Source of the DNA: Verrucomicrobiota bacterium
Lineage (GTDB): Bacteria > Verrucomicrobiota > Verrucomicrobiia > Limisphaerales > UBA11358
DNA length: 62,707 nt
Assembly: GCA_049523555.1 (NCBI GenBank)
Contig: JBEKMU010000007.1
Span: 1 to 62,707 of the forward strand
Direction of reading: 5' to 3'
Below the pieces are notes generated by a model. It was given only the letters and a program-made list of their open reading frames with translations, was not told where the DNA came from and made no database searches. Position numbers and translations under genes: made by a program. Shown piece by piece: positions 2,067 to 60,007 of this stretch. Positions within the stretch are counted from its first letter, which is position 1; every line of letters begins with the position of its first letter.

Positions 2067-2139
2067 TCAGCGGTGATTTTTTCTGAATTGGTGAAGGCGC
2101 ACGCGATAATAAAAAGGGCGCAGGGCGAGTTGTTCAAGC
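2067..2139 (-). repeat. displaced copy of GT4 3' end (direct repeat with 3343..3403)
   Basis: 2079..2139 matches 3343..3403 at 59/61 bp; encodes LEQLALRPFYYRVRLHQFRKNHR*. Confidence 0.95.
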
Positions 2140-2146
2140 AAAATGG

Positions 2147-3319
2147 TCAAGCATGTCGAAAATACGAACGCAATCTGAATAAAGGACGCTCCAAACCATA
2201 ATACGATATGATTGCGACTGCAAATGTCGGAATCAGCCAATACCATGCCCAAGATGAATTTTGGACATCCTTCCATTGTTCCGTTCCCATCCATGGCCGA
2301 GACCAAAATATCTGCTGCCAAATGTAGAGCGAATAGGAAAGCACGCCAATCCAACCTACCCATTTCCAGTTCAGTATGCGATAGACGCACCAGTCAGGAT
2401 CGATTAGGCTGTGCAAGAGAAGAAGAGAAAATCCCAACGCCTGAAAGCTTTGTCCAAAGGGCAACAAAACAATCCTAGCAACCGTGGTTATAGTAAGATT
2501 TGTAAAGACATGAGGCATCACATGAGGCGCCAGATGAGGCGTCACCACCAGCAACAGTGCGGCAACAAACATCACCCCTCGCCTTTGTTTGAAAATGCTT
2601 GCAACAAGATTCTGTTTATTGGCGAGTAAAATGGCGCACAAGCAGCCGAACGCCAAGCTGTCAAAATAGCAAAAGAACGAACCAAAAGAAAACACCCTTT
2701 CTAGAAATGCGGGTTTAAGGTGAATTCCGTTCAGACCACGCAAAAGATGCTGATGACTTTTACAAAAAATATAATTACCCACCCGGAAAATTGGTGCGGT
2801 ACAAATCGGAATTGCCAGAATAATAGCCTTTACACGAATACTGCGTCTGCTCAACAAAACAAGCAGGCTGGGCCAAATCAAATAAAATTGTGCCTCAACG
2901 GAAAGCACCCATATATGTGCACTTGTGAAAGAAGCATCCATAAAATTTCTGGTAAAAGTCAACATTCCAAGCCAGCCGGCCGTTGTTTCCTTAAATTGTG
3001 TAAATAACTGGAGTCCCAACAACACAAGAACGAACATGTAATAAACTGGAAGAATACGTAAAAAACGGCGCACATAAAAATATTTAAGATTTATCCGTCT
3101 TGATTGATTCGTTTCCTGTAGCAGCAGCCATGTGATCAGGAATCCACTGATCACAAAAAAAAAGCGGACACCAAGATTGCCATCAAAAATCCAGTGAAAG
3201 AGCGGCTTTTCTGTATCAGAAACAAACCAGCCTGTATGCTCCCCCAACACCATCAAGATGCTTAATGCTCGCCAGCCATCCAAAGATGGTAATCGGGATG
3301 AAGTTGAGCAATTTCTCAT
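2147..3319 (-). CDS. acyltransferase family 3 (OafA-like O-acyltransferase)
   Basis: LDGWRALSIL, GVRFFFVISGFLI, RRFLRILP, HIWVLSVEAQFY, SYSLYIWQ, SYYGLERP. Confidence 0.93.
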   Translation of the reverse strand: MRNCSTSSRLPSLDGWRALSILMVLGEHTGWFVSDTEKPLFHWIFDGNLGVRFFFVISGFLITWLLLQETNQSRRINLKYFYVRRFLRILPVYYMFVLVLLGLQLFTQFKETTAGWLGMLTFTRNFMDASFTSAHIWVLSVEAQFYLIWPSLLVLLSRRSIRVKAIILAIPICTAPIFRVGNYIFCKSHQHLLRGLNGIHLKPAFLERVFSFGSFFCYFDSLAFGCLCAILLANKQNLVASIFKQRRGVMFVAALLLVVTPHLAPHVMPHVFTNLTITTVARIVLLPFGQSFQALGFSLLLLHSLIDPDWCVYRILNWKWVGWIGVLSYSLYIWQQIFWSRPWMGTEQWKDVQNSSWAWYWLIPTFAVAIISYYGLERPLFRLRSYFRHA

Positions 3320-4578
3320 GAATTGGAATCCATGTAAAAAGATTTTCTGAATTGACGAAGGCGCACGCGATAATAAAAAGGGCGCAGGGCGAGTTGTTCA
3401 AGCCAAGAATGGCCGAATTGGTGCGCATCCAGATAGGCGGCTGTGGCCCGCGCCCGTGCCAAATCTTCGGCGGCAAAGGGATTGTCGCGTTTTTCCACGA
3501 CCGCACGCAGAACGGCCTCCAGCCGCGCTATGGATGTGTCCGGATCCGCCAGCGTCCGGATGTGTTGCCGCGCGGCGGCCCCGAATTTCCGGCGGAGCAC
3601 GGTGTCATTGGCCAGCGTCAAAATCGCATCCGCCATCGTGGCCGGGGTGCTGGCGACAAAGCCGCATTCGCCATGCCGCACCAACTCGATCTGCGCCTGG
3701 TCGAACCACGGCACGGAATGGGTGATGACCGGCTTGCCCAAGTTCATCGGTTCGGCGATGCCGTAACCGAAACTTTCACCAATCAGGGAGGTGTGCAGTA
3801 CCCCGTCGAGCGCTGCCAAGGTCAGGCGCAGCTCTTCGGCATCGGCGGTGGCCGGCAAAATGATGAAATGCCGCGCGTCAGCGGAGGCACGCAATTTTTC
3901 AGCAATGAATGGTGGCGGCTCGCGCAGGAGCAGTTTTATTTTCCGGTTCCGCCGCAGCGCCTTTTGAAAGGCATCCAAGGCAAGGTTGGTCCATTTGTTG
4001 GGCTCCGGCCGCGAGAGCCGGCCAAAAAGAACTTCATCGTCAGCCACACCGAGTTGTTTTCGGAAGGCGGCGATTTCGGCGGCGGACGGCGGTTCCACCG
4101 GGTCCACCGGATAGACCGCCACACTGCATCGCCTGAAAAACTCCCCATCCAGCCGTCGGAATGTGCGCCGCGCCGCTTGCACGCACGCCGTCCATGAGAT
4201 GAACAGCCGGAAATCCGTCCAGGCGTCTTCACGTGGGTTTTGCCGCTTCCCGAAAATATTGGTTTGCACGACGGGAATTTTTCGGGGCAGCAGTGCCAGC
4301 GCTTCTCCAAGTATGTCTCCTTCGTGGGGATGGCCGGGTGCATGCGCATGAACAACTTCCGGCGAAATCTCCCGAAGCCTGTCGGCAATCACCCGCGCGG
4401 AGGTGCTGATAACTTGCACGGGCACATTGTGCTGTTCCAGTTCGGCGCGACGTGGCCCATCCATCAAAGTGAGCATCGTGACGTGGTGGCCGCGCTCCTT
4501 CAAACCCCACGCCCAACGGCCAGCCGCTTTTTCGGTGCCGCCCAGCCCCAGAATGTTCACAAAAGAGACGACTTTCAT
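3316..4578 (-). CDS. glycosyltransferase family 4
   Basis: MKVVSFVNILGLGGTEKAA start, ESFGYGIAEPMNLGKPVI (EX7E). Confidence 0.9.
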   Translation of the reverse strand: MKVVSFVNILGLGGTEKAAGRWAWGLKERGHHVTMLTLMDGPRRAELEQHNVPVQVISTSARVIADRLREISPEVVHAHAPGHPHEGDILGEALALLPRKIPVVQTNIFGKRQNPREDAWTDFRLFISWTACVQAARRTFRRLDGEFFRRCSVAVYPVDPVEPPSAAEIAAFRKQLGVADDEVLFGRLSRPEPNKWTNLALDAFQKALRRNRKIKLLLREPPPFIAEKLRASADARHFIILPATADAEELRLTLAALDGVLHTSLIGESFGYGIAEPMNLGKPVITHSVPWFDQAQIELVRHGECGFVASTPATMADAILTLANDTVLRRKFGAAARQHIRTLADPDTSIARLEAVLRAVVEKRDNPFAAEDLARARATAAYLDAHQFGHSWLEQLALRPFYYRVRLRQFRKSFYMDSNS

Positions 4579-4658
4579 GTTGGACAGGTGTTGTGCTGTG
4601 AGCAGCAAGCCAGACCCGGAATTTCCCGCCGGCACGGGTTCATTGCCACTGGTAAGAA

Positions 4659-5387
4659 TTATCCATACCAATCAATAATTCCCGTGCCCGTCCAGTGCCC
4701 GAATGACGTAAGATCGAGCTTTGGTTTTGTGATGCCGCGCCATATGGAGAGCATGTTCCACTGGCGAATGTCGTCAAAAAGCACAAGGGCATTCGATGGC
4801 AAGTGGATCGTGGACAAATGTTGCAGGAACGTCTGTTCAAAAACGATATTTTTGGGCGCATCAACGAACAGCAGATCGCAGCCAGATAGCGTTTCAGCAA
4901 AGTTGGCAAAGAAAGTGGCGTTGCCGAGATCCCCGATGACCTGGCGCAATTTGCCATCTTCAAAATCGGAGGAGCGCAATGCGCTGTCCTTGATCTCATT
5001 CCATGGGATAATATCAATGGTGATGAGTTCGCTGCCCGGCGGCAAGCTGCCCTTCATTGAGAGGGCGCTCAATCCTTGAAACGTGCCAATCTCGATTATT
5101 TTTTTGGGCTTTTGGGCAATGACCAGGCCGGCAAGCAATTTGTAATGTTCCCCCGGCCAAACATCCGGGTAATAAAGTGGGGCAACCATGCGTTTCGATA
5201 CCCACGACAAGTCCACGCGACGGGCTTGTTCGATGGCCTTTAAGGAAATATCCAAAAGCCGTTCGTTCGGGCGACCCGAATCGTCATCTATGGATGCGAT
5301 TGTCGAATACTCGATGTGCCGACAGTTGAACGGCAATGGCAGACTCCAGCGCAAAGCCCTGCCTTTTAATCTGGCAATCAGGTTCAT
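4659..5387 (-). CDS. class I SAM methyltransferase (Methyltransf_24/O-methyltransferase-like)
   Basis: IIEIGTFQGLS, DLLFVDAPK, VLFDDI. Confidence 0.85.
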   Translation of the reverse strand: MNLIARLKGRALRWSLPLPFNCRHIEYSTIASIDDDSGRPNERLLDISLKAIEQARRVDLSWVSKRMVAPLYYPDVWPGEHYKLLAGLVIAQKPKKIIEIGTFQGLSALSMKGSLPPGSELITIDIIPWNEIKDSALRSSDFEDGKLRQVIGDLGNATFFANFAETLSGCDLLFVDAPKNIVFEQTFLQHLSTIHLPSNALVLFDDIRQWNMLSIWRGITKPKLDLTSFGHWTGTGIIDWYG

Positions 5388-5524
5388 GCGTTCTTCTTTG
5401 GAAAGTTATCGTGATGCCTGCAATAAACAAGCGTTGAATAATAAAGCACCTGGTGAGGTGGCGATTGTGCCAAATATGATGTCGGGAAAATGCGGTTTTT
5501 ACTGAACTGAAACGCGAACAAATA

Positions 5525-5577
5525 TTTTGCGAATTTGGCGGCGCAAGATTCACGCCGCCACCAGCCCGCCATGCAAA
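5525..5577 (-). pseudogene. copy of Wzx flippase 3' end
   Basis: 5542..5576 matches 9468..9502 at 33/35 bp; LHGGLVAA*ILRR versus LHGGLVAAWILRR. Confidence 0.9.
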
Positions 5578-5813
5578 GTGGCGTGAATGACATCAGGCTG
5601 GATCTCCCGCAAAACTCCGGCGATTTTATCAGCGGAAATCCCGACCACCCGAGCTGGAACGTGATGTTGTTCCAATTCAATCCGGCGCGGCCCGTCCGCC
5701 AGCGTCAACACCGTTACCTGATTGACGCGCTCCTTCATTCCCCAAGCCCAGCGGAAGGCCGCCTTCTCGGTGCCGCCCAGCCCAAGGTTGTTCAGGAAGA
5801 TGATGATTTTCAC
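5578..5813 (-). pseudogene. truncated 5' copy of the GT4 gene
   Basis: VKIIIFLNNLGLGGTEKAAFRWAWGMKER...PDVIHA, homologous to the N-terminus of 3316..4578 and fused to the flippase fragment. Confidence 0.9.
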
Positions 5814-6054
5814 GTGGCAAGCACGCAGTTTATTCACACCAGACGTGATAGGAAAACTTTGAATCCGGCGAATCGAAATCATCGAAAAATGAAACGGCTT
5901 AGCCCGCCGCATGGCTGTCGCCCAGCCGTGCAATGGCTGGTGTCTGTTTAGCCCTCATCGGGTGGACAAGTTTATTCAGCTTTATTGTATTGCTGTAAAT
6001 ACCAAACCTCGCTTGAGATTGCCTGAGGCCAGTACCTGTTAAAGAGTGAATTTT

Positions 6055-6882
6055 CTAATAGGCCGCATTGGGTTCCAGCAAATGCGCAACCTCCGGACTG
6101 GCTGCGATATAATTAAGCCCCAGAAAATCGTCATCTTCGAAGCGATATTCCCGGAACCTTATAGATGTTGGAAGCAATTTCCCGACCTTATAGCCGCGAT
6201 CCGAAAAATAAGCGTAATAATCCCGCAATAGAAATTTGGTGACTATATTCACCATGCCATATTCAAATTGAATAACAGGCACGACCTTGGGGGTGATCAA
6301 ATTACCAAAACCATGAAGCACAAGATGCTCTGCTCCCTCCACGTCCACTTTCAGCAAATCCATCCCGGTGATGCCCCGATCAGCGCAATAATCCATGCCG
6401 CGCATGACTCGCGCTTTGATTGTTTCGTTGTTTTGGGAACATACAACCTCGAACATGGAGCTTAATTCATCCCACTCCCGGCAATATTTCACTTCAATTT
6501 CCCCCGCCGAATCTGAAAGACCAATCGCGTTTAAGACAATCTGTTGGTTTGTTGAAAACCGGGCGGAGAGTTTTTCATAAGTGGGCGGGCAAAGTTCAAA
6601 GCAGTGAATGATGGCGCGAGGGTTAACCGCCAGGACTGAAGAGGCCCAATTGCCATGATTCGCCCCGACATCAAAAACGGTTTGAAGCAGGTTGCGCCGT
6701 GCCAACGCACTCAAAAACCATCGCTCGCCATTGGAATCAAAATCGCCATTGGAATTCTCATGAATCCGATGATAGGTGACGCAAATTGAATCAAGTTTTC
6801 GCCCCACAACTGGACTTGCGTCCAAGGCAGACATGAGCCGTCTTGCGGTTCGTTTCAAAGTATTGCGAAATGGCAGCGGCAT
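6055..6882 (-). CDS. FkbM family methyltransferase
   Basis: VFDVGANHG, FE, LLKVDVEGAE, IQFEY. Confidence 0.92.
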   Translation of the reverse strand: MPLPFRNTLKRTARRLMSALDASPVVGRKLDSICVTYHRIHENSNGDFDSNGERWFLSALARRNLLQTVFDVGANHGNWASSVLAVNPRAIIHCFELCPPTYEKLSARFSTNQQIVLNAIGLSDSAGEIEVKYCREWDELSSMFEVVCSQNNETIKARVMRGMDYCADRGITGMDLLKVDVEGAEHLVLHGFGNLITPKVVPVIQFEYGMVNIVTKFLLRDYYAYFSDRGYKVGKLLPTSIRFREYRFEDDDFLGLNYIAASPEVAHLLEPNAAY

Positions 6883-6984
6883 TTAATATAGAGGTGTATT
6901 TCAGTCCGACCGAGCGATACTAAACAACAAGGCGGTAATGATGCAAATGGATTTTCCTTAATGGGTTTGTGAAATTGGAGAAAA

Positions 6985-7346
6985 ACTGGAAATCCGTCCA
7001 GTCGTCCTCCTTTGGGTTTTCCAACCGGCCAAAGACATTGGTTTGAACGACGGGAATTTTTTTCAGCGCCTCACCCAGCACGTCGCCCGTGTGCGGCTGG
7101 CCGGGAACATGGGCGTGGACGACGTTAGGCTGTAGTTCCGGTAAAATCCTGGCAATGACCCGCACGGATTTTTCCATGATTCGAACGGAAAGGTCGTGTT
7201 GTTCCAATTCGGCCCGGCGCAGACCGTCGTCCAATGTCAGCACCGTGATCTCGTGACCACGTTTCTTCAAACCACAAGCCCAGCGGCAGCCGGCCTTTTC
7301 CTTGCCCCTCAGGCAAAGACCGTTCAAAAAAAACCAGGATCCGCAC
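6985..7346 (-). pseudogene. second truncated, frameshifted 5' copy of the GT4 gene
   Basis: VRILVF (frameshift in A8 run 7326-7333) LNGLCLRGKEKAGCRWACGLKKRGH...KIPVVQTNVFGRLENPKEDDWTDF. Confidence 0.9.
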
Positions 7347-7356
7347 AAATTTACAA

Positions 7357-8460
7357 TCAGCCTAAATTGTAGGTGATTGAATCGCCCCGTTTGTTTGCCG
7401 GCGTGTAGGCGGGGCATATCCGGCAGCACTCGGGCAAATTGCCCTTGGACCAATCATCCATTTTTGCCAAAAGTGCCTGGTTGAGGTCCAAACCCGGCGT
7501 ATCGGCCGATCCCAGATAAAACCAACTTTGCTCCTGCTTGAAGGAATCGCTTATTGAACAGTAGCAACAATACCATTTCCCCGTGGGGGCGCAGGCGAGC
7601 TTGCCCAAATGGGCGCAAGGCATGGTCATCAAAGGCGTAGTGTCAAGATGGCGCGCGAGCTTGAGGTACTTGGGTTGCTGGCCGGAGATCGCCAGAATGT
7701 CGTGATAAACATCAACGTACTCGACTTCGTTGATCAGATGTTTGAACCGCCCCAGGAAGGCGACGTTTTCCGGATGTTTTTTTACCTTCCCGGAATCCAG
7801 TGCCCGATACCACAGGGCAATGAAGACATTCGATTTGAGCCGTTCCTTGGCGGCGAGCAAGGCTTGCACTCCATTGTAAACCTTGTCCCAGGCATCAATT
7901 TTGTACAACTGAAGATAATCCTCCCGGCCCCAGGCGCCGAACGAAACATTAATCCGGGAAACATTCGTGACAAGCCAAATATAGGTGTTGGGCAGTTCTT
8001 TTCTGGTTTTGCGGATGCGGGGGATCAGTTGGGGATCAATGAATGCCTCCCCGAGGTAGGGGGTAAAATCAACCAAGTCCACCTGCGCCTTTTTGGCCAA
8101 CGACAACGCCTTCTCAAAGAGGCCGTCACCCATCACCCGCCTGGGAAAATCCAAAATCGGATAGGAACAAAACGAACAACTGGCGTTGCAAATGCTGACC
8201 GTCTCAATGGTCACGGCCTTGTCAAATTTTCTTATCTCCAACTCCAGGACCCCGCAGAGACAGCGATGAATGTGTCCCAACAGATGCCGATGACGTTGAG
8301 GACACAGACCCGTCCTGAATCCAAAACCGAGGAGAAGCTTGAGGAAGTGCAACCAGTATTTTCGTATTCTCGGAAAACGAGAGAACAGGGAAAAAGCCTT
8401 TTCAAGCAGTCGCATGGCCACCGAATCTACAATTTCATCAGGAAAAGTCAAGTGTTTCAT
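7357..8460 (-). CDS. radical SAM protein with C-terminal SPASM/twitch-like Cys cluster
   Basis: CNASCSFC (CxxxCxxC), GEAF, C-terminal PCAH...CCYC...CCRIC. Confidence 0.8.
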   Translation of the reverse strand: MKHLTFPDEIVDSVAMRLLEKAFSLFSRFPRIRKYWLHFLKLLLGFGFRTGLCPQRHRHLLGHIHRCLCGVLELEIRKFDKAVTIETVSICNASCSFCSYPILDFPRRVMGDGLFEKALSLAKKAQVDLVDFTPYLGEAFIDPQLIPRIRKTRKELPNTYIWLVTNVSRINVSFGAWGREDYLQLYKIDAWDKVYNGVQALLAAKERLKSNVFIALWYRALDSGKVKKHPENVAFLGRFKHLINEVEYVDVYHDILAISGQQPKYLKLARHLDTTPLMTMPCAHLGKLACAPTGKWYCCYCSISDSFKQEQSWFYLGSADTPGLDLNQALLAKMDDWSKGNLPECCRICPAYTPANKRGDSITYNLG

Positions 8461-8519
8461 TCAATCGGCTGATGAAAGCTTCCGAATTGAATTCCAAGGT
8501 CACAATCCTTTCCCTTTCA

Positions 8520-9383
8520 TCACGCAAAACGACTATCCGGTTTTTGCACCACCACATGGCAACCATAAGGAAGGGCGCCGGGGGCAATTCCCGGCATGTT
8601 GGCGGAGGTTTGGACCATCCGCGCATTTTTCTGTTCAAAAAACCAGACCAAATCCTTCAGGCGGACGAGGTGAATGGCGTCGGCGTCAATCGAATAACCG
8701 GCGCCATGAAGCATGCCCGGCGCAAGATTCAGCCAGAAGGCACCCGGAGCACCGGCCCGGAGTCGCCTTTTCCAAAGCGGGGCGCGAATCTTCCAGTCCA
8801 TGAGATGCGAACAGGCATCGGCGAAATCCAACGTCCGCAGCTTTTCCCGGAACCGGCGGGGCGTGCGGCCAAAATAAATGCTCGGCGGAAAACCGGGGCT
8901 GTCTATGAATTCCGGACAATGAATGACAATCAATCCGCCAGGTTTGCAGTAACGCCACAGTGATTCGAGATAGGCCGGCGGGTCAACAACATGTTCCACA
9001 ACGCAAATGCTGGCAACAATGTCGAAGTCTTCCGCCATAGATGTGCCAAGCTGGAAAAAGCGCGCCTTGGGAAACCGTTGCCGGTTGTTTTGCAACAAAG
9101 CATCGCTATGATCCAGACCGGTATAAAAGCCGCCCTTTTCTTCAACATACTGGCAGAGATGCGCGGTGCCGCAGCCAACTTCCAGCACCGTCGCTCCCGA
9201 AAACACACGGCCAATCAAGTCCCAGTGGAATGGGTACTCTCCCGGATTGTATCTACCGGCAACCTGATCGGCTATCTGGTAATAGCTCGCCGGTGTGTTT
9301 TGATAGAAAGCAGTCATCGCCTGTTCCAATCCGGCAATCTGCTCCGGCGAAAGTTCGGCGCGGCGGCACAACTGGAGGCTCAT
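8520..9383 (-). CDS. class I SAM-dependent methyltransferase
   Basis: VLEVGCGTAH, VVEHVVDP, KPGG. Confidence 0.88.
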   Translation of the reverse strand: MSLQLCRRAELSPEQIAGLEQAMTAFYQNTPASYYQIADQVAGRYNPGEYPFHWDLIGRVFSGATVLEVGCGTAHLCQYVEEKGGFYTGLDHSDALLQNNRQRFPKARFFQLGTSMAEDFDIVASICVVEHVVDPPAYLESLWRYCKPGGLIVIHCPEFIDSPGFPPSIYFGRTPRRFREKLRTLDFADACSHLMDWKIRAPLWKRRLRAGAPGAFWLNLAPGMLHGAGYSIDADAIHLVRLKDLVWFFEQKNARMVQTSANMPGIAPGALPYGCHVVVQKPDSRFA

Positions 9384-19425: not shown

Positions 19426-19531
19426 AGTTAGTTTTCCCGATAAACTCAGACGATAGAATAACGTACTGACAATGTATTGGATTTGGCAACCTATGTGCGC
19501 TTTATTTGCGGTTAGCCATCAACCCTTTTTC

Positions 19532-20290
19532 ATGTCCACAACATTTCAAATCATACAGACAGCTAGCAGTGACACTTCCAAGCCACTGGCTATGAAAAAA
19601 CGGCTCGATTTGATAGAACGGCATCTACAGACGTCGGGAGGACGTTTTTTGGATTGTGGCTGCGGATCCGGCGGTTATGTCTTATCTCTCATGGAGCGAT
19701 TTCAGCTCGACGCGCATGGAATCGAATTGGATGAGGACAAGGTCAAAAGGGCCCGAGGCAACACCCTTCTTCAGGAACGGGTAGAGCGCGGGGATCTGCA
19801 AGCGATTAATTTTCCTGCAAACACATGGGATTACGCCATGCTGAATGAAGTTCTGGAACATGTTCCTGATGATCGGCGGGCTTTGAAGGAAGTGTATCGA
19901 ATTCTGAAACCCTCCGGACTCTTGTTTATTTTTTCTCCAAATCGTTGGTTTCCCTTTGAAACACACGGCGTGCGGCTGAAGCGGTCTGTCCGGCTAGTTC
20001 CTCATTGGATACCCTTTATCCCCTATATCCCGTTGCGGTTCGGTAGCCTGTTTTTTGATTATTGGGCGCGAAACTACTGGCAAAAAGAGTTGGCCGATAT
20101 GGCAAGAGCCAGCGGGTTCTCGATCGTTGAGCGGTCGTTTATCTGGTTGACCTTTGAAGGCATCTCTGGTTATCAGCCTAGATTTATCAGGGCTGGCAAG
20201 CCGCTATTGAGATTCATCAGTGACAAACTGGAGAGGCTTCCGATTGTAAAAAAATTCGGGTTGTCTCAAGTGCTTGTATGCAGGAAGTGA
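19532..20290 (+). CDS. class I SAM-dependent methyltransferase
   Basis: LDCGCGSG, NEVLEHVPDD, SPNRWFPFETHG. Confidence 0.9.
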   Translation: MSTTFQIIQTASSDTSKPLAMKKRLDLIERHLQTSGGRFLDCGCGSGGYVLSLMERFQLDAHGIELDEDKVKRARGNTLLQERVERGDLQAINFPANTWDYAMLNEVLEHVPDDRRALKEVYRILKPSGLLFIFSPNRWFPFETHGVRLKRSVRLVPHWIPFIPYIPLRFGSLFFDYWARNYWQKELADMARASGFSIVERSFIWLTFEGISGYQPRFIRAGKPLLRFISDKLERLPIVKKFGLSQVLVCRK

Positions 20291-20369
20291 TCGTTAACAC
20301 AAAATCTGGAGACAATTTGTTGTTCGTATTGCTTAAAGCTGGAGCGCCCGTTTTTTTCCGCCACAGAAA

Positions 20370-20403
20370 TCAAATCGCCATCACCTGTTTGTATTCCGGC
20401 ACG
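20370..20403 (-). repeat. displaced copy of MBL-hydrolase 3' end (direct repeat with 21031..21064)
   Basis: 30/34 bp identity; VPEYKQVMAI* versus VPEYKQMVEI*. Confidence 0.88.
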
Positions 20404-20560: not shown

Positions 20561-20914
20561 TCATGCGTGAACAAAGAGCCGGGTGGATCTAAGTCCATCA
20601 CGCAAAGTTCGCAGCAAACTAAATCCTGCTTCCTTAAATTTTGCCTGGGCCCGACGGATTGATTCTCCCTCCGGCTCCGCGTGGAATTCAATGATGATGT
20701 AACGGAATTTGCCGAGGACACCAAGCGGAGCGGCCCGTAAAATTGCATATTCCGCCTGTTCGCAGTCGAGCTTGAGCAGATCAAATCGTTGAAAGTGGCT
20801 GCCGTGCTTCTCCAATAAAGTTTCCGGCGTCATTAGTTCAACCTGCGATTCATCGCTTTTGTCCGTGTTCAGCGTGGTAAAAATATTGTCGGAAACCCGT
20901 GCGGTTCGTGACAA
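20561..20914 (-). pseudogene. C-terminal fragment of FkbM methyltransferase
   Basis: FDLLKLDCEQAEYAIL...IIIEFH; N-terminal DxGAN motif missing. Confidence 0.75.
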
Positions 20915-21030: not shown

Positions 21031-22425
21031 TCAAATCTCCACCATCTGCTTGTATTCCGGCACGAGGACTTGGGCTTTGGGTTTCATCGCGCGCAACGTT
21101 TCCGCGTGCGCCAGACACTGTGATTCCTCGCCGTGGATGCAGACGATTTTTTTGAGGTCGCCGGAGATTTTCTGGACATATTGTTTCAATTCATTCCTGT
21201 CCGCGTGGCCGGAATAGGTGTCCAGCGAAACGATTTTGGCGCGCACCGCCTGCGGTTCACCAAAAATGTTGACCGGATTTTGTCCCGCCACGATTTGTGC
21301 GCCCAACGTGTGTTCCGCGCAAAAGCCGATGAACAGAATCAGATTGCCCGGATCGCCGATGTGGTTTTTGAGATGATGCCGGATGCGGCCCGCCTCGCAC
21401 ATGCCTGACGCGCTGATGATGATGGCGGGTTCCTTCAAATCGTTCAGTTTCATCGAATTCGCGACTTCGCGGATGTAAGTCAGGTTTTCCATGCCAAACG
21501 GGTTCGCCTTTTCGTGCAGGAATTTGTTGATCGTGTCGTTGAAACATTCCGGGTGCAGGCGGTAAATCTCCGTGGCGTTCACACTCAGCGGGCTGTCCAC
21601 GAAAATCGGCACGCGCGGCAGTTTCCCGGCCAGCGTGAGCTGGTGGAGCACATAAACAATCTGTTGCGTGCGCCCGACGGAAAACGCCGGGATGATGACC
21701 TTGCCGTTTTGTTTCAGGGTTTCCAGCACCAGTCGGCCGACGGTCTCGTCGGCGTCCGCGCGGACAGAATGTTCGCGTCCGCCGTAGGTGGATTCGATTT
21801 GGAGATAATCCACGTTTTCGACCGGCTCCGGATCGCGGAGAACTTCGTCGTTGCCGCGGCCGACGTCACCGCTGAACAAATAACGGAATTGGCGTCCACC
21901 TTCGCGTACGTCCAACACGACTTGCGCCGAGCCGAGAATGTGTCCGGCGTCACGGAACGTCACCGTCACACCATCGAGCACCGGAAAGGGGCGGTTGTAA
22001 TTGAAGGCGACGAATTGCTGGAGCGCCTTCTCGGCGTCGGCTTCGGAGTAAAGCGGTTCGACCAGCGGCAGTTTTTGCTTCGCGCGTTTTTTGGAGACGA
22101 ACGCCGCGTCATCCTTCTGGATTTGCGCGGAATCCACGAGCATGATGCCTGAAAGGTCGCGCGTGGCGAACGTGCAGTAAATGTTGCCGGTGTATCCTTG
22201 CTTGCAAAGGTTCGGCAGATTGCCCGCGTGATCAATGTGCGCGTGGCTCAACACCACGGCGTCCACCGGCTTCGGGTCGAAGGGAAAACAGCAGTTGCGC
22301 TGGATGGACTCCTCGCGGCGGCCTTGAAACAACCCGCATTCGAGCAACAACCGCCGGCCGTTGACCTCGAACAGATACATTGAGCCGGTGGTGGTGCGCG
22401 TTGCGCCGAAGAAGTGGATTTGCAT
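21031..22425 (-). CDS. MBL-fold beta-CASP metallo-hydrolase (RNA-specific, YSH1-like)
   Basis: LSHAHIDHAG, AGHILGSA, ESTYG, PAFSVGRTQ, SGMCEAGRI, YSGHAD, HGE. Confidence 0.93.
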   Translation of the reverse strand: MQIHFFGATRTTTGSMYLFEVNGRRLLLECGLFQGRREESIQRNCCFPFDPKPVDAVVLSHAHIDHAGNLPNLCKQGYTGNIYCTFATRDLSGIMLVDSAQIQKDDAAFVSKKRAKQKLPLVEPLYSEADAEKALQQFVAFNYNRPFPVLDGVTVTFRDAGHILGSAQVVLDVREGGRQFRYLFSGDVGRGNDEVLRDPEPVENVDYLQIESTYGGREHSVRADADETVGRLVLETLKQNGKVIIPAFSVGRTQQIVYVLHQLTLAGKLPRVPIFVDSPLSVNATEIYRLHPECFNDTINKFLHEKANPFGMENLTYIREVANSMKLNDLKEPAIIISASGMCEAGRIRHHLKNHIGDPGNLILFIGFCAEHTLGAQIVAGQNPVNIFGEPQAVRAKIVSLDTYSGHADRNELKQYVQKISGDLKKIVCIHGEESQCLAHAETLRAMKPKAQVLVPEYKQMVEI

Positions 22426-22509
22426 GGGGCAATCGTGTTGCGTGTTGCGGGTTACGTCAAGCAGCCGGGTTGATCCGTTGTCGAACACTTGACGCAATAC
22501 GCAACACAG

Positions 22510-25395: not shown

Positions 25396-25493
25396 AAAGC
25401 ACAAGGTAACAAATTGAGGGGCAAAGTCGAGGCGAGCTTGGCATTGCACAATGCACCCGATTCGTGAAACATGGACGCGCAGCGGAACTTCAC

Positions 25494-34118: not shown

Positions 34119-34201
34119 GGTATAAATATTAAAAATAATCGGCGCGAAGCTGGCAGCACAATTTAAAAACACATAATTCAAGGCTTCCGTTAAACACCAA
34201 C

Positions 34202-34372: not shown

Positions 34373-34574
34373 AGTCTCGGCTTCTCCTTCATCCGCCGTG
34401 CGAGTGGAACTGCTTTTTCTGGTTTTGAGCCAAAGGGCTTGGGTGAATCTTTGGGCAAATCGTCCCAATAATTTGAAGACTCCATTACTTTGGCGGGTGT
34501 CGGAGAGCGAAGGCGTGTTAACGGAAGCTGTTCGTCCCAAATGGAAAAGGGTCTTGAACACGGTCGGTGAAAAA

Positions 34575-34649
34575 TGGAGCCAGCTGTCAGGATTGAACTG
34601 ACGACCCACGGTTTACAAAACCGTTGCTCTACCGCTGAGCTAAGCTGGC
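34575..34649 (-). tRNA. tRNA-Thr(TGT)
   Basis: GCCAGCTTAGCTCAGCGGTAGAGCAACGGTTTTGTAAACCGTGGGTCGTCAGTTCAATCCTGACAGCTGGCTCCA cloverleaf, encoded CCA. Confidence 0.97.
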
Positions 34650-54243: not shown

Positions 54244-54260
54244 CGGATGGAGGATTGAAG

Positions 54261-55217
54261 ATGGCAAAACCCTATCTCCCATCTCCGATCTCCCATCTCC
54301 CGATCCTCATCGCCGGCCCGACCGCCGTCGGCAAATCCCAAATCGCGTTGCAACTCGCCGAACAGCTCGGCGGCGAAATCATTTCCGCCGATTCCATGCA
54401 GGTCTATCGTGGACTCGACATCGGCACGGCCAAACCGTCGTCCGCCGAACGCGCCCGCGTGCCGCATCACCTGATTGACATCTGCGACCTGACCGAATTG
54501 TTCGACGCCGCGCAATTTGCCCGGCTCGCGCACAGTGCCGTGGCGAAAATCCAGTCGCACGGGCGTGTGCCAATTCTCTGTGGCGGCACCGGACTTTACC
54601 TCAAGGCGTTTCTCGAAGGACTCGGCGAAGCGCCGTCCGCCGACGCCAAGTTGCGCGCCGAACTCGAAGCCACACCGTTGGAAAACCTGCTGGAAGAATT
54701 GCGCGAACGCGATCCGGTCACGTTTGAAAAAATTGACAAAAAAAATCCGCGCCGCGTTGTGCGTGCCGTGGAAGTGATTCGTCTGACCGGCCAACCTTTC
54801 TCCAAACAGCGCGCGGACTGGAACACACATCACGCATCACGCATCACGCATCATTTTTACTGCTTCACGCGAACGCCTGCCGACTCGCACGCCCGCATCA
54901 ACGTCCGCGTGGATGCGATGTTCGCGCACGGTTTGGTGGAGGAGACGCGCGAACTGCTCAAGCGCGGCCTTGCGCAAAACAAAACGGCCATGCAGGCCAT
55001 CGGCTACCGGCAGGTGGTGGAACATTTGCGCGGTGAACGATCATTAAAGGAAACCATCGAGCTGGTGAAGATCCGCACGCGGCAATTTGCCAAACGCCAA
55101 CTGACCTGGTTTCGCGCCCAGAAGAATCTCGAGTGGATTGAATTGAACCCGGGCGGATCGCTTGAAAAACGTCTGCAAGAAATTTCTTGTGCGGTTCAGA
55201 ATCAAAACCGAATATGA
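54261..55217 (+). CDS. miaA: tRNA dimethylallyltransferase
   Basis: GPTAVGKS, SADSMQVYRGLDIGTAKP, GGTGLY, AIGY, FAKRQLTWFR. Confidence 0.97.
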   Translation: MAKPYLPSPISHLPILIAGPTAVGKSQIALQLAEQLGGEIISADSMQVYRGLDIGTAKPSSAERARVPHHLIDICDLTELFDAAQFARLAHSAVAKIQSHGRVPILCGGTGLYLKAFLEGLGEAPSADAKLRAELEATPLENLLEELRERDPVTFEKIDKKNPRRVVRAVEVIRLTGQPFSKQRADWNTHHASRITHHFYCFTRTPADSHARINVRVDAMFAHGLVEETRELLKRGLAQNKTAMQAIGYRQVVEHLRGERSLKETIELVKIRTRQFAKRQLTWFRAQKNLEWIELNPGGSLEKRLQEISCAVQNQNRI

Positions 55218-55369: not shown

Positions 55370-57859
55370 GTGCGTATTTCAACAGCAAACAAGGGAGAAG
55401 GGAAATCCACCCGGAAGAGGCTTCCAGGGTTGCTCGTCGTAATCGCCGGCATCATTTTGGGACAGGCGGTTTTATATGGGCCCTCATTGATTGGGCAGAA
55501 AATCCTTTTGCCGCTGGATATTCTCGCCCAACCGGGTTTCTACATTCCTGCAACGCCGGAAACGGCAAAAATCGTGCCGCACGACTTGATCTTGTCCGAC
55601 TTGATTTTGCAATGGGAACCGGCACGGCAATTCGCCATTTCCGAGATGTACCAAGGCCGTTTTCCCTTATGGGCACCGTATCAATATGGGGGCGTCCCTT
55701 GCGTGTGGCCCAAATACTCGCTTTTTCTGCTTCTGGAATGTCTTGCCAAAACACCGGTGATACTTGCCTGGGTGCAACTCTTCGCCGCACTGGTGACAGG
55801 TATGGGAATGTATGTTTTTTGTCGGAGGGTATTGATGGTCAGCTTTTGGCCGGCGGCCGTTTGCGCGTGGTGTTATCCTTTGACGGCCTTTTTTGTTCTG
55901 TGGCAGGGTATCCCAACGGGCTTGGCCGTATACTGGCTGCCGTGGCTTTTTCTGTTGGTTGATCAAACCATCCGGGGCATTAATCCCCTGGCCGTCATTG
56001 GTTTAAGCGTCGTCACATTCCTGGTAATAACCAGCGGCACCATTGACGTTGCCGGACAGGTACTCCTGGGTTCTGGAATTTATGCAATCTGGTGTTTGCG
56101 GGATGCACATCCCGGCGGATGGTTCCACCGGAAATTCCGAACGGCAATCGCGATGCTGGTTCTTGGCTGGGGACTTGGATTTTTACTGGCGACTCCGCAC
56201 CTGTTGCCTCTGCTGGAATACGCACAATCAAGTTCCCGTATGGCGCAGCGCAGCGAAGGTGTAGAGGAGCGACCACCAGTTGGTTTGGCGGCGTTGCCTC
56301 AAGTTTTATTGCCAGACATGTATGGCACAACGGCAAAAGGCAGTTGCTTTATCGGATTCGGAGAGCCAAATCTAATGGAAAGTCCGTCCGCAGCCTATGC
56401 TGGTATTTTTGCCGCCTTGTTGGTCGCACCTCTGGCATGGTTAAGCAGACATCATCGCGCCATCAATGTCTTCTGGGTTTTTCTCGTTTTCTTTGGATTA
56501 AGCTGGTGTCTGAATGTTCCGGGTTTCGTTGATCTGTTGCGTCTGCCGGGATTGAACATGATGTCTCATAATCGCCTGGTGTTCCTGACCTCCTTCGCCA
56601 TTCTCGCCATGACTGCCATCGGGCTTGAAACGCTTTTGCAGGGCTTCATCAACCGGCGATGGTGGTTCTGGTTGCCGGCGATTTTGCTGGTTGGACTTTG
56701 CGGTTGGTGCATCTACCGCAGCATGGTTCTACCCGAACCCATCGCCACCCAGCTGCGGTTCCCCGTTTCTGACGGAAAATATTTCGGGCAAATTCGGGAC
56801 ATTGAAGACGTGCGGCAGGTTCAAGCATGGTTTGTCCGGCATTACCTTGTTATGGCCGTGTTTTGTGGCCTGGGTTTTTTAGGCTGGCTGTTGCTGTGGT
56901 TCCAAAAGGCGGGGCGTTTTTATCTGATGCCGGCGCTGGTGATTTTTCTAATGGGAGATCTGCTGTGGTTTGGCCATTGCCGCAGTGCCCAATGTGACCC
57001 CGCGCTTTACTATCCGGAGATTCCGGTTCTGAATGCAGTTGCCCATTCCACGCCTGCCCGGCTGATTGGCGACCTGCCAGCTCCGCTTGCGTCAATGCAG
57101 GGCTTGAGCGATATCCGGGGATATGATGCCATTGATCCGGCGCGAATGGTGTCCCTCTTAAAACCAGTCGCTGCCCCGGAAAGCGTGATACCCTCTTACG
57201 CACAAACCATGTTGCTGCTGCCGAAAGAAGAGTTTACCCCGCCATCCACCATACGACTTCCCCCCATTTTAGACATGCTCAACGTGCGCTACGTCATCTT
57301 TCGCGGCACTCCCTCCCAAACAATGCAACCGGCGTTTCAAGGAAACGACTATTTCGTATTTGTCAATTCCAATGCCCTCCCCAGAGTGTTCGTTCCAACG
57401 TCCGTGACAATCATTACCAACGATGAAGATGAATTGATGGAATTGTCATCGCCGCAATTCAAGCCGGCAGATATCGCCTGCGTCGAATCGTCCGTCGAAC
57501 TGCCCGCCCGCTGCCGCGGCACGGCGCAAATCACCAAGGAAATTCCAACGCACATCACCATCTCGGCGCAAATGGAAACGCCGGGATTAATCGTGCTGGC
57601 CGACCGATGGGACAAAGGCTGGCGCGCATTGTGGAACGGCCGGCCGGCACCCATCCTCCGGGTGAATTACGCAATTCGTGGCGTTGTGGTGCCAGCCGGG
57701 ACCGGAACATTGGAATTCATTTATAAACCGGCGAGTTTGGTTCTTGGGTTGTGGCTGGCCGGTCTGGCGGCCACGACTCTGCTGTGCTGGCTGGCTGTCA
57801 TCCGGATGAGATCCCGGTCTCGGCAAATCAAATCCCCCGATGAAGCCACTACCCGGTAA
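55370..57859 (+). CDS. YfhO-like GT-C membrane protein
   Basis: PLWAPYQYGGVP, GYDA, LNVRYV, ALPRVF, GWRALWNG...RGVVVPAG. Confidence 0.85.
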   Translation: MRISTANKGEGKSTRKRLPGLLVVIAGIILGQAVLYGPSLIGQKILLPLDILAQPGFYIPATPETAKIVPHDLILSDLILQWEPARQFAISEMYQGRFPLWAPYQYGGVPCVWPKYSLFLLLECLAKTPVILAWVQLFAALVTGMGMYVFCRRVLMVSFWPAAVCAWCYPLTAFFVLWQGIPTGLAVYWLPWLFLLVDQTIRGINPLAVIGLSVVTFLVITSGTIDVAGQVLLGSGIYAIWCLRDAHPGGWFHRKFRTAIAMLVLGWGLGFLLATPHLLPLLEYAQSSSRMAQRSEGVEERPPVGLAALPQVLLPDMYGTTAKGSCFIGFGEPNLMESPSAAYAGIFAALLVAPLAWLSRHHRAINVFWVFLVFFGLSWCLNVPGFVDLLRLPGLNMMSHNRLVFLTSFAILAMTAIGLETLLQGFINRRWWFWLPAILLVGLCGWCIYRSMVLPEPIATQLRFPVSDGKYFGQIRDIEDVRQVQAWFVRHYLVMAVFCGLGFLGWLLLWFQKAGRFYLMPALVIFLMGDLLWFGHCRSAQCDPALYYPEIPVLNAVAHSTPARLIGDLPAPLASMQGLSDIRGYDAIDPARMVSLLKPVAAPESVIPSYAQTMLLLPKEEFTPPSTIRLPPILDMLNVRYVIFRGTPSQTMQPAFQGNDYFVFVNSNALPRVFVPTSVTIITNDEDELMELSSPQFKPADIACVESSVELPARCRGTAQITKEIPTHITISAQMETPGLIVLADRWDKGWRALWNGRPAPILRVNYAIRGVVVPAGTGTLEFIYKPASLVLGLWLAGLAATTLLCWLAVIRMRSRSRQIKSPDEATTR

Positions 57860-57871
57860 GGTTCGTGATCC

Positions 57872-57959
57872 TCGCGCCCAGACAAACCGGGAGTGGATTG
57901 AATTGCAGCCGGATGAGTCGCTGGAAAACCTGGCTAATTTTTTCCGCGGGACATGCTGA
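57872..57959 (+). repeat. second copy of miaA 3' end
   Basis: RAQTNREWIELQPDESLENLANFFRGTC*; shares GAGTGGATTGAATTG (57891-57905) with 55131-55145. Confidence 0.92.
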
Positions 57960-57986
57960 AGGTTTGCCGGAGGAATTTCGCCAGCG

Positions 57987-59828
57987 TCAGCGATGAGGAG
58001 CGGACAGCGTGACGCTCTGTCCGATGGCCGGAACTTTGAATGGCTTGGCGGAAGACGTCCGCCAGTCGAACCAGAGCCAGTGGAAATCGGGCGAATCCAG
58101 CGAGGTATCGAAATGGAACGCAACACAGGAAGGCAAACCCGATGCGTCCGATTCCAGAACTTCCACCGTGAGGCCGCCGAGATTGTAGCGGTCGCCTTTT
58201 TTACATTTGGGTTCGCTCACCAATGTGAAAGTGCTGAAGGCGTAGGTGATATGGATGGGACCGACATCGTCGCAGGAGAATATGTTCGGCCCGTGGGATT
58301 GAATCACCAGCGTTTTGTCATCGGTTCGTTGGACGTCAAAGCCCGTGCAACCCGGCACCAGCACCCGCAGGGTCCTGGGCAGTAACTGGTGATGATACGC
58401 TCTGTAAGAAGGTACATAAGCCGACTCAAGCGGGCAGACTGCATTGACAACGATCACATTTTCGTTCTCGATGTTTGGCCAATCAGGAGGAACGCGGCTC
58501 GCCCAAGTGAAAAGGTAAGAGTCAGCTTTAACCACTGCAACTCTTCCGGCGACCGCTCCCGGCCCATGTGCCAGAATCAGCAAGACACCGGCAGTCCAAG
58601 CTAGGATTCGGTAGCCCGACCATTCCGGCAACCGGCTTGGCCGGATGACCAGCCCGGCAACGAAACTGGCGATCAATCCATAAGCGCCGACCGCTATAAA
58701 GCCGAAGTTCTTGGACAATGGCACCAGCACTGCTTCGGGAATGGCTGCCAATATCATGACCGCAAACCAGAACGCGGCTGTTTTGTCCCGGCGCACCCAC
58801 GGGAGAAAAACCACCAAAGCCGCAACCACAAACACGCCATAAAGTGCAATAACTACCGGATGCAACGAAGGTTTAAGCGCGAACAAAAATTCCGGCGGCA
58901 CGCCGGTAAGCTGGCCTCCCAGCAGAACCGTGGTTCTAGGGATCAGTTCCCGCATAAAATAAAGCGGCTCATGGGCTGGATCAATGTAAATACCCACATG
59001 AGACAGACCGTAGCCGGAGAACGTATAGATGATGCGCCACGCGATAATCACCAAGACCGAAGGCAAAATCGTCAGCGCCCGGTTGTGAAAAGGTTCCGGC
59101 TCAAGCACCAGGGCATACGCGAGGATAAAGGCAAACGTGGAAGCTCCGCTTTCTTCCGCAAAAAGTGAAAGCGCCAGAAATAGAACGGACAGTCCGAGCG
59201 CGGAACGGGATTTTGTGGAACGCCATTGATGATGTTCGTAAAGACACAACAGGCCGAAGAAAAGCGCCAGTAAAAAGCCGCGGTTGGCGACAAACGCCAC
59301 GGGAAAGTAGGTATTGCCATCAAGCAGGAACAGCAGCGCCGCCAGTCCGGCGGCCCAACCCGTTCCCATCAGCTTCCGGTAAACCATCGTGAGGAGAAAC
59401 ACGACGGCCGCAAACCACGCGATGTTATGGGCGTGCATCAGCGCCGGCGAGTCGGGAAAGAGCCGGTAATCGAGCCAGTGCGTAAGCGCGGTGACCGGCC
59501 GGCAAAGACTCAATCTTAAATCGTCCGGCGTCCACCACGGCAAGGTGCCGTAGTTCTTCATCAAAACCATGCATTGTGGATTCCGGCTGAAGCCGAAGAG
59601 GTCAAAAAGGACAGTCGAGAATCTGCCGGAATCCGGGGGGTTGCCCGTCTCCTGCATTCGCGGCGGCAATTGGTCCGGCCGAAGCTCAACCGCGCGCTGA
59701 GGCAGATCATCCATGAACAGGCCGGTCTTCAAGGCGGGCAACATTACCAGTATCGCCCCAATCGCAAGAATCGCAGGAAGGTGGCGGTGCTCAAGAAATC
59801 GCTTCAGGACATTTAAGATTGTTGCCAT
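57987..59828 (-). CDS. GT-C fold (TMTC/PMT-like) membrane glycosyltransferase
   Basis: FMDD, CRPV, MHAHNI, ANR..LL, AEES; many TMs. Confidence 0.7.
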   Translation of the reverse strand: MATILNVLKRFLEHRHLPAILAIGAILVMLPALKTGLFMDDLPQRAVELRPDQLPPRMQETGNPPDSGRFSTVLFDLFGFSRNPQCMVLMKNYGTLPWWTPDDLRLSLCRPVTALTHWLDYRLFPDSPALMHAHNIAWFAAVVFLLTMVYRKLMGTGWAAGLAALLFLLDGNTYFPVAFVANRGFLLALFFGLLCLYEHHQWRSTKSRSALGLSVLFLALSLFAEESGASTFAFILAYALVLEPEPFHNRALTILPSVLVIIAWRIIYTFSGYGLSHVGIYIDPAHEPLYFMRELIPRTTVLLGGQLTGVPPEFLFALKPSLHPVVIALYGVFVVAALVVFLPWVRRDKTAAFWFAVMILAAIPEAVLVPLSKNFGFIAVGAYGLIASFVAGLVIRPSRLPEWSGYRILAWTAGVLLILAHGPGAVAGRVAVVKADSYLFTWASRVPPDWPNIENENVIVVNAVCPLESAYVPSYRAYHHQLLPRTLRVLVPGCTGFDVQRTDDKTLVIQSHGPNIFSCDDVGPIHITYAFSTFTLVSEPKCKKGDRYNLGGLTVEVLESDASGLPSCVAFHFDTSLDSPDFHWLWFDWRTSSAKPFKVPAIGQSVTLSAPHR

Positions 59829-59929
59829 TTCCGGCTCCGTTCCGCTTGGGGTTTTCCAACAAGCCCTTCTTACAAAATTTTGCGCCCAGCCGCCAAGAAT
59901 TTAATTTTCCACAAGACCCGGATTTGGTT

Positions 59930-60007
59930 TTGGAGTGGATTGAATTGAAACCGGATGAATCGCTGGAGAACGTCGCGCAGAAAATTTGTGACACGATTTC
60001 AAATTAA
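59930..60007 (+). repeat. third copy of miaA 3' end
   Basis: LEWIELKPDESLENVAQKICDTISN*; GAGTGGATTGAATTG at 59933-59947. Confidence 0.92.

Follow-up and report, generated by a model that had tools for sequence, protein, structure and literature searches.

Integrons are built on an intI/attI platform and their cassettes end in attC hairpins; islands at tRNA genes use tyrosine integrases, accrete in tandem and leave integrase-less, att-flanked derivatives (cis-mobilizable elements); and in the minimal mobile elements of Neisseria and at integrase-free hotspots, alternative cassettes lie between conserved flanks and are replaced by homologous exchange, for which no gene-end duplication is known to be needed. 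Much of the bacterial accessory genome lies in hotspots without mobility genes, and how genes first enter them is poorly understood. Here we analysed a 62,707-nt stretch of DNA (the window: contig JBEKMU010000007.1 of assembly GCA_049523555.1, from a Verrucomicrobiota bacterium), in which cargo genes at five sites are flanked by direct, diverged copies of one end of a resident gene. A preliminary description, made from the sequence alone, had taken these sites for a distributed, integron-like way to accumulate and excise surface-glycan genes. We incline to the view that the repeats are displaced gene ends, scars of integrase-free recombination beside conserved anchor genes. They are marks of recombination at hotspots and not an integron-like glycan system, and the kind of event is known, being here a variant of insertion with long target duplication and of C-terminal displacement.

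The first description of insertion with long target duplication was reportedly that of Nobusato et al. (2000), and Jackson (2009) and Poole (2011) are said to be further sources on C-terminal displacement and orphan arrays. The former has been described as an integrase-free event for restriction-modification genes (Furuta, Abe & Kobayashi 2010, PMC2853133); in the parts of that paper that treat these insertions, direct repeats of >30 bp are single in the empty-site genome, the enzymology is unknown, and the repeats of the H. influenzae cases overlap the 3' end of a gene by 15 bp and 2 bp. Displacement of 3' ends, leaving arrays of orphans, occurs in type VI secretion system (T6SS) effector-immunity, Rhs and contact-dependent inhibition (CDI) loci, and the relevant sections of Kirchberger et al. 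(2017, PMC5361080) model it as homology-facilitated illegitimate recombination (HFIR) with no integrase. Finally, Campbell-type single crossover was the main product in E. coli conjugation assays, giving an insert plus a 109-950-bp duplication, in the part of PMC3240628 that reports them.

The window is the whole of contig C7 of G000, a metagenome bin of 3.13 Mb in 192 contigs with a GC content of 0.567 (G-numbers denote genomes, G000 being the source genome, and L-numbers denote loci of relatives). Close relatives by miaA are uncultured Verrucomicrobiota/Verrucomicrobiae from peat and soil projects, some records being labelled subdivision 3 or Limisphaerales, and the sequencing runs that contain the stretch are peat and wetland metagenomes. 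Repeats were detected by repeat finding and local alignment, and cargo was named by Pfam scans. All five repeat sets were recovered where the preliminary description had placed them, with local-alignment scores of 116, 49, 44, 54, 53 and 60, against a null of 300 random pairs of 400-nt zones lying 0.6-4.5 kb apart in the same window (median 20, 95th percentile 26, 99th percentile 32; the maximum of 66 is probably a real repeat). The claim that the resident gene is left complete was borne out, the resident genes being full length when compared with relatives, and the Pfam scans of the window's cargo open reading frames (ORFs) gave no match to integrase or transposase families, also as claimed. 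The cargo matched Acyl_transf_3, several class-I and FkbM methyltransferases and glycosyltransferase GT4; two of the methyltransferases (20561..20914 and 32172..32711) are truncated fragments.

Site 1 is a plain long target duplication around a foreign acyltransferase. Its parts are as follows.

3316..4671, minus strand: resident GT4 gene, complete, anchor of sites 1 and 2 (Pfam Glycos_transf_1/Glyco_trans_4; residues ~28-447 align with relatives).
3343..3412, minus strand: proximal GT4-tail repeat, 66/70 identical to 2079-2146.
2147..3319, minus strand: cargo, an Acyl_transf_3 acyltransferase (Pfam; GC 0.43) whose start overlaps the new GT4 stop.
2067..2146, minus strand: distal copy by alignment; this is the original tail of GT4, now displaced, and it ends in a stop of its own at 2067.

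For the surrounding glycan locus (window 1-10975), none of the five closest relatives gave a DNA match; a wider search of the genus matched it in 17 of 150 other genomes, and 11 loci fetched from ten of these 17 showed the recurring order flippase, MT23, GT4, slot, 278-aa gene. The site 1 repeat is 70 nt long and 94% identical, and both copies can be aligned to the single GT4 tail of G062. In G062 the GT4 tail and stop are followed by the start of the 278-aa gene, and the identical string follows the distal copy in G000; because the passage from the distal copy to the 278-aa gene is the one found in G062, that copy is the original. The resident GT4 diverges four codons before the old stop and gains eight new codons that overlap the start of the acyltransferase, a gene of low GC and atypical codon use (negative codon-usage score). 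The slot between GT4 and the 278-aa gene is empty, with a single tail copy, in G062, G134, G056 and G158, and is occupied by an FkbM gene in G042, G141 and G001. In G042 the GT4 stop is followed by ~15 codons of the head of the 278-aa gene, a 45-codon GT4 tail remnant, the FkbM gene and the full 278-aa gene; here an empty-type allele was added and the resident allele kept, with no cargo delivered.

Like the published insertions with long target duplication, the cassettes described here are small gene sets without a mobility gene, and site 1 fits feature for feature: the repeat is longer than 30 bp, relatives with an empty site have a single copy, and neither integrase nor transposase is present. 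The differences are that the cargo is not made up of restriction-modification genes, that the repeats cover the gene tail up to the stop, stack in tandem and occur at ~20-30 genes of a 3.1-Mb genome, and that many of them are diverged alleles imported with the cargo and not fresh duplicates. On this last point, an origin of both repeats from the recipient's own target would fit the 94% identity at site 1; it does not fit miaA, where the proximal tail is a foreign allele linked to cargo 1.

At the miaA gene (site 5), to judge from the alignments, the event is a displacement by a relative's tail allele imported together with cargo.

54255..55217, plus strand: resident miaA, complete, whose last ~80 nt are an allele common only to two other loci that bear cargo 1.
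55112-55168, plus strand: source of the miaA tail repeat, by alignment.
55370..57859, plus strand: cargo 1, an 829-aa membrane protein, YfhO-like at a score below the Pfam cut-off.
57872..57960, plus strand: miaA remnant r2 (57872-57928 aligned, 45/57 identical), its frame open for ~30 nt further to a stop; orthologue in G022 and L122.
57987..59828, minus strand: cargo 2, a 613-aa membrane protein with no Pfam match; feature-based look-alikes are GT39/PMT_2, a lead only.
59914..60007, plus strand: miaA remnant r3, the oldest tail (59933-59987 aligned, 45/56 identical), then the flank found after miaA in empty-site relatives.

Both r2 and r3 are still in the miaA frame to their own stop codons. 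In G016 and G023 the live end of miaA corresponds to r3 with its flank, and the outermost copy is therefore the oldest. The two ends of the resident gene have different affinities: the first 80 nt are 0.89-0.90 identical to L077/L078 versus 0.46-0.64 to L124/L083, while the last 80 nt are 0.71 identical to L124 and 0.65 to L083 versus 0.42-0.57 to nine others. This tail type was found at only two of 52 further miaA loci, L124 and L083, each with a homologue of cargo 1 alongside. The earlier suggestion that a relative's allele of the gene end integrates additively is supported at miaA, where the tail travels with the cargo, as would be expected of additive integration with its anchor in the gene; the GT4 event is a plain long target duplication.

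Comparison of relatives showed that the junction between miaA and a hexapeptide-transferase gene is empty in four of the first 20 (G017, G013, G001 and G015) and variously filled elsewhere. G011 has a homologue of cargo 1 only; G022 has r2, cargo 2 and r3, with a different small gene replacing cargo 1; G003 carries a Phd/RelE-like pair, behind which lies a tail remnant of its own; and G002, G019 and G023 have other ORFs. Among the 52 further loci, nine carry robust tail remnants, behind at least six kinds of cassette. Upstream of r2 the cassettes of G000 and G022 differ, and homology resumes at the remnant boundary. The miaA remnants start within ~10 codons of one another, apart from one that is much longer. 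No integrase was seen among the listed ORFs of the 20 and 52 loci, which were read by eye and not Pfam-scanned. Arrays are stacked in several genomes, with two miaA remnants in G000, G022 and L122 and three beta-CASP remnants in G066.

The latter belong to the anchor of site 3.

21031..22497, minus strand: resident beta-CASP metallo-beta-lactamase-fold gene (RNase J-like), whose last 34 nt and stop form the repeat.
20561..20914, minus strand: truncated FkbM (C-half; Pfam), between the remnant and the resident gene.
20367..20403, minus strand: displaced beta-CASP tail remnant including the stop codon, 32/37 identical to 21028-21064; matching remnant in G066.
19472..20290, plus strand: methyltransferase (Pfam), outside the remnant.

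Extra copies of the beta-CASP tail were found in G022 (one), G063 (one) and G066 (three) and not in G049 or G011, and their lengths vary (~35, 42 and ~71 nt). The relatives' cargo at this gene comprises a ParD/ParE-like pair and an IS200/RAYT-like gene; over the miaA and beta-CASP slots together it includes ParD/ParE- and RelE-like pairs, IS200/RAYT-like genes and a cupin-like gene. Empty and filled alleles, which the preliminary description had proposed to look for, were thus found at GT4 and miaA, while the beta-CASP slot is empty, alternative or multiple and tRNA-Thr (site 4) has an alternative filling.

The miaA and beta-CASP sites share with C-terminal displacement that the gene body anchors incoming DNA, that a new 3' end with its linked gene or genes displaces the old end, and that arrays build up. 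They differ in that the anchors are housekeeping genes (miaA, the RNase J-like gene, asd, argG and others) without a polymorphic-toxin role, that the cargo is arbitrary and that the remnants are short (28-170 nt). Nor is the cargo a polymorphic-toxin tip with its cognate immunity gene; it consists of methyltransferases, glycosyltransferases, toxin-antitoxin pairs and others.

The pattern extends well beyond the window, as the genome-wide self-comparison suggested at the outset showed. Using a home-made ORF caller (2659 genes), the last 120 nt of each gene of G000 was taken as a query for orphan copies within 8 kb. Orphan copies of the 3' end lay directly repeated and downstream at 34 genes, versus 6 inverted downstream and 8 direct upstream; for the 5' end, 29 were direct upstream versus 7 inverted. 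BLAST with whole genes gave 37 3'-terminal pieces in direct downstream position versus one inverted, 20 of the 37 being 28-120 nt long and the longer ones coming mostly from paralogue arrays on contigs C20 and C53. Curation, in which seven REP-like, self-overlapping or doubtful cases were dropped, left 23 remnants with a median length of 62 nt, of which 16 end at most 11 nt from the stop codon. Across the other sites the repeats measure 28-170 nt. That the sites share no motif was confirmed, with no boundary motif beyond chance: the best 6-mer occurs in 5 of the 23 remnants, equal to the 95th percentile of the null. One duplication, on C52, has no cargo, a 24-codon remnant lying 153 nt behind the live stop.

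Outside the window the anchors are mostly housekeeping genes (YchF, a serA-like dehydrogenase, a glutamine amidotransferase, asd, pdxJ and RtcB; further argG, aconitase, carB, an rRNA methyltransferase, a DinG-like helicase, a sigma factor and others). The cargo there includes a histidine kinase, NUDIX and cupin proteins, a ParE toxin, an ORF6N protein, a Calx-beta protein, a DEAD-box helicase and DUF885; transposase-like cargo is present at 2 of 17 outside sites (C10, a weak DDE match, and C48, IS200-like), and a scan of 30 cargo proteins from outside the window gave no match to the integrase family PF00589. Clearly glycan-related cargo occurs at only three of the 17 (C1, C6 and C29), and together with the toxin-antitoxin pairs, IS200/RAYT-like and cupin-like genes in relatives this overturns the claim that the cargo is always glycan machinery. 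The glycan-rich cargo of the window is a local effect of a contig that holds the glycan locus.

These findings show no new machine for surface-glycan diversification; their interest lies mainly in the apparent frequency of the scars and in clean natural examples of gene entry into hotspots without mobility genes. The scars, which can be dated, record the joining reaction in one long target duplication, one imported tail allele, stacked remnants and cargo-less events. Two patterns known from restriction-modification genes and polymorphic toxins are thereby extended to an uncultured lineage of soil and peat, at the 3' ends of its conserved housekeeping genes. Were ~20-30 scars in 3.1 Mb to turn out unusual, this lineage would be well suited to the study of integrase-free gene gain in nature; were the frequency ordinary, any genome could be mapped for such events with this simple scan.

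The comparisons show that DNA entered beside conserved genes whose old ends were kept, repeatedly at one and the same gene and with no integrase of its own. We distinguish two forms of scar, plain long target duplication as at GT4 and tail displacement as at miaA. In the latter, the end of a relative's miaA and the gene behind it were joined in, the recipient's tail being pushed downstream as a dead remnant, and repetition of the event produced the two stacked cassettes and two remnants. One end of the incoming DNA would recombine homologously inside the anchor gene, and the other might be joined by a Campbell-type single crossover of a circularised piece or by an illegitimate or short-homology event. 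Campbell-type crossover has in common with the present sites an insert with a direct duplication, a complete gene copy left behind and independence of an integrase; the published case is a laboratory plasmid system with longer repeats than the present ones, and in our material circles were not observed and the model does not account for how a first circle came to bear a tail. HFIR would be expected to leave 3-10 bp of microhomology at the illegitimate joint; no identical bases were found beyond the aligned block at any of the 23 remnants, where local alignment would absorb any microhomology. Once in place, a remnant and the gene body could act as two homology arms and allow cassettes to be swapped by ordinary homologous recombination; with a remnant as second arm, the difference between the G000 and G022 cassettes ahead of r2 would be accounted for. 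The short repeats that survive may reflect the loss of cassettes lying between long, recombination-prone repeats. Across the genome the scars build up at many housekeeping genes and at a minority of the insertion hotspots, the cargo being whatever is exchanged. A bolder version, in which displaced core-gene tails are portable homology arms by which general recombination adds, stacks, swaps between species and pops out cassettes, a genome-wide recombinase-free counterpart of the integron at dozens of housekeeping genes, seems to us unlikely.

Insertions nearby were examined for the same scars. Over 51 kb the window and G022, the closest relative, are colinear apart from 12 indels or replacements of at least 300 nt, and in eight cases it is G022 that has extra DNA.

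G022:C9 42638-45664, 50886-51921, 54552-59286 and 66481-67922: G022-specific stretches.
G022:C9 70692-72199, 77321-79450, 82596-84161 and 84394-84938: G022-specific stretches.

Within this colinear stretch none of the eight had flanking direct repeats above the inverted control, and tail scars therefore mark a minority of hotspots. All eight look like minimal mobile elements or hotspots of that type, unlike the tail scars. Flanking direct repeats were likewise not found around the replaced block 13636-15725, in whose place G022 has unrelated DNA, or around the homocysteine S-methyltransferase gene 34901-35830, an insertion relative to G022, G049 and G053 (in these, tRNA-Thr adjoins the homologue of 35922..37298). 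Two ORFs of the glycan region, 13646-15370 (574 aa) and 16955-18841 (628 aa), have no Pfam match.

Several points weigh against the scars being products of integrase-free joining. The joining reaction itself is an inferred step and was not observed. At miaA the most frequent remnant boundary turns up in several distinct cassettes, as a site-specific enzyme would also produce; descent, with crossovers inside remnants, may account for it. Remnant lengths cluster at 28-120 nt, whereas random joints would spread more broadly, and the eight repeat-free insertions imply that most insertions arise otherwise or lose their scar. Classical HFIR, in the sections of PMC3240628 that deal with it, usually deletes recipient DNA instead of duplicating it, and the recipient loci here show duplication and not deletion. 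Circles as the substrate would have to come from somewhere and be transferred by some route, and neither was seen. The genome-wide counts are approximate, the ORF caller being home-made, and the end-copy scan covered G000 alone, so that its frequency cannot be graded as unusual. The competence genes whose presence had been proposed as a check, ComEC and DprA, do occur in G000, but they are also present in most control genomes and are too common to weigh.

The alternative that survives best, although we regard it as improbable, is that all sites are attL/attR remnants of elements of a site-specific (tyrosine or serine) recombinase that targets 3' ends, the recombinase having been lost or acting in trans. 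Integrases that target the 3' ends of housekeeping genes are well known, the remnants, like the identity blocks of att sites, extend from within the gene to its stop codon, and the commonest miaA boundary recurs across cassettes. The site at which this explanation does best is site 4.

34575..34649, minus strand: tRNA-Thr(TGT), complete, anchor of site 4.
30858..34574, minus strand: cargo region (Pfam).
32790..34208, minus strand: GT4 (Pfam).
32172..32711, minus strand: truncated methyltransferase (C-part; Pfam).
31172..32197, minus strand: FkbM (Pfam).
30831..30857, minus strand: copy of the 3' 27 nt of tRNA-Thr, 25/27 identical to 34575-34601.
~34290-34370, plus strand: FkbM scrap (conserved motif region) between the GT4 cargo and tRNA-Thr, a decayed gene piece.

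In G022 the same tRNA gene is accompanied by a perfect 25-nt fragment (25/25) and a single unrelated 331-aa ORF. No integrase was found at tRNA-Thr in G000 (Pfam) or in G022 (331-aa ORF listed, not Pfam-scanned), and in G046 an integrase ORF lies 82 nt from the 3' end of tRNA-Thr(TGT). G000 has 11 PF00589 matches, three of which adjoin tRNAs. At tRNA-Cys (C12:4517-15121) there are classical tandem islands with two tyrosine integrases (4517-5653 and 13749-15020), and 29 nt of the tRNA 3' end are repeated at 5687-5715; since these islands show the same signature, the tRNA-Thr site needs no new mechanism. Most simply, it looks like the att remnant of an integrase-borne island from which the integrase is gone, and its inclusion with the protein-gene sites as products of one mechanism does not stand. 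As in tRNA islands, a complete tRNA and a 25-29-nt 3' fragment enclose variable cargo, whose content differs between G000 and G022; unlike them, the tRNA-Thr site is without an integrase in G000 and G022, and the protein-gene sites are without every other hallmark.

Beyond site 4 the evidence runs the other way. No scanned cassette contains an integrase, and none was noticed by eye at the 20 and 52 miaA loci. In five near-complete relatives, 13 of 20 integrase loci adjoin a tRNA, one being a 3.2-kb mini-island at tRNA-Glu (L070) that, with the tRNA-Cys islands, the 27-nt fragment at tRNA-Thr resembles; protein-gene tails flanked the integrase at 0 of these 20 loci within 20-kb stretches (a sample of five relatives and not a census). 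A cognate integrase island, as each site might have, was seen at none of the protein-gene tails in this sample; at tRNA-Thr the G046 integrase is a candidate. No direct repeats were found within the contigs around the G000 integrases on C2, C45, C47, C11 and C171. Moreover, there are more than 20 different targets without a shared motif, remnant lengths vary at one and the same gene, cargo-less duplications exist, and in G042 the displacing DNA ends within the head of the neighbouring gene. Apart from this question, we observed integrases head-to-head with the 5' side of tRNAs (Arg, Ser, Lys and Thr-CGT) in L057-L060, L062 and L065, an arrangement that recurs across genomes.

Less probable again is a dedicated recombinase-free cassette system in which the tail repeats are portable sites for integron-like gain and excision of surface-glycan genes. 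The stacking at miaA and beta-CASP, where cassettes have remnants of their own, would suit it, as would the joint travel of tail and cargo, the resumption of G000/G022 homology at the boundary of r2 and the mostly glycan-related cargo of the window. Integron cassettes, too, are small, mostly single-gene, integrase-free and stacked with the newer ones proximal; here, by contrast, there is no intI/attI, the repeats are the end of the neighbouring gene, and the sites are scattered and share no motif (hairpin folding was not assessed). Further against such a system, the cargo is not specific, several cargo genes are truncated, and the remnants decay and in some cases have no cargo. Most nearby insertions lack repeats (0 of 8 with them), boundaries are variable, and no excision product was shown; on these grounds the integron-like interpretation of the preliminary description is not upheld.

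Excision was sought by aligning contigs of four peat runs to 53400-61000, and no excision product or circle was seen in these contigs, which cannot reveal rare junctions or circles. A single joint, 55045->59932, was present in one contig each of X1 (depth 9.4) and X3 (depth 28.1), with 36 letters on the shorter side at an identity of at least 90%. It was rejected as an excision product and read as most likely the empty-type miaA of a more abundant relative, because the 86 nt between 55045 and the repeat register were unmatched and the X3 contig was ten times deeper than the cargo; the check for junctions or circles proposed earlier thus yielded only what is most likely another relative's joint. 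In the contigs of three runs cargo 2 was deeper than cargo 1.

Decay in place, that is, local tandem duplication of genes and their neighbours followed by deletions, with nothing imported, is about as doubtful, and slightly more so. Among what speaks for it are the gene fragments of site 2.

4579..8637, minus strand: ~4-kb block of site 2, absent from relatives in which MT23 adjoins GT4.
4659..5387, minus strand: methyltransferase (Pfam).
5550..5933, minus strand: GT4 N-terminal fragment (repeat finding).
5519-5588: flippase-tail piece within the block.
6055..6882, minus strand: FkbM methyltransferase (Pfam).
6920..7453, minus strand: GT4 N-terminal fragment (repeat finding).
7357..8460: radical-SAM-like ORF within the block.

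G141, G001, G087, G134, G135 and G127 lack this block, which lies between MT23 and GT4. Its repeated pieces are gene halves of 380-530 nt and not short ends. These GT4 N-fragments and the many truncated FkbM and methyltransferase pieces resemble decayed paralogues, and tandem paralogue arrays occur elsewhere in G000 (C18, C20 and C53). Decay in place is nevertheless at odds with the empty sites in relatives, the low GC and atypical codon use of the site 1 cargo, the miaA tail allele common to distant and not to close relatives, and the different cargo found in the same slot across genomes; for sites 1 and 5 it is already contradicted.

Assembly chimeras of co-existing strains, which a 192-contig bin from peat with several co-occurring strains (many variant positions, uneven depth) might suggest and which the preliminary description had named as a possible undoing, are rejected as highly improbable: r2-cargo 2-r3 is found again on a 542-kb contig of G022 and on the 4.6-Mb contig of L122, other assemblies bear remnants on contigs as long as 0.3-4.6 Mb (0.3-1.5 Mb for those outside this structure), the copies differ by 5-25%, the joints of cargo and remnant share no sequence for a graph assembler, and the independent contig set X1 spans miaA tail/cargo 1 and cargo 1/r2/cargo 2, crossing two junctions without a difference.

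Among the repeats of the window that lie outside the gene-end sets, short dispersed REP-like repeats were noted at 12667-12731, 60913-61000 and 62283-62419. The first has at least 14 matching places in G066, and the second matches many contigs of relatives and has very high depth in metagenome contigs; a tandem 57-nt pair of the REP-like group adjoins tRNA-Gly in the window. IS200/RAYT-like genes were seen within cassettes on C48 of G000 and in G066/G063. Lastly, a ~55-nt stretch at 26332-26390, within the ORF 25464..26828, has 90-100% matches at many unlinked places in relatives and probably represents a strongly conserved motif in the coding sequence of some large family.

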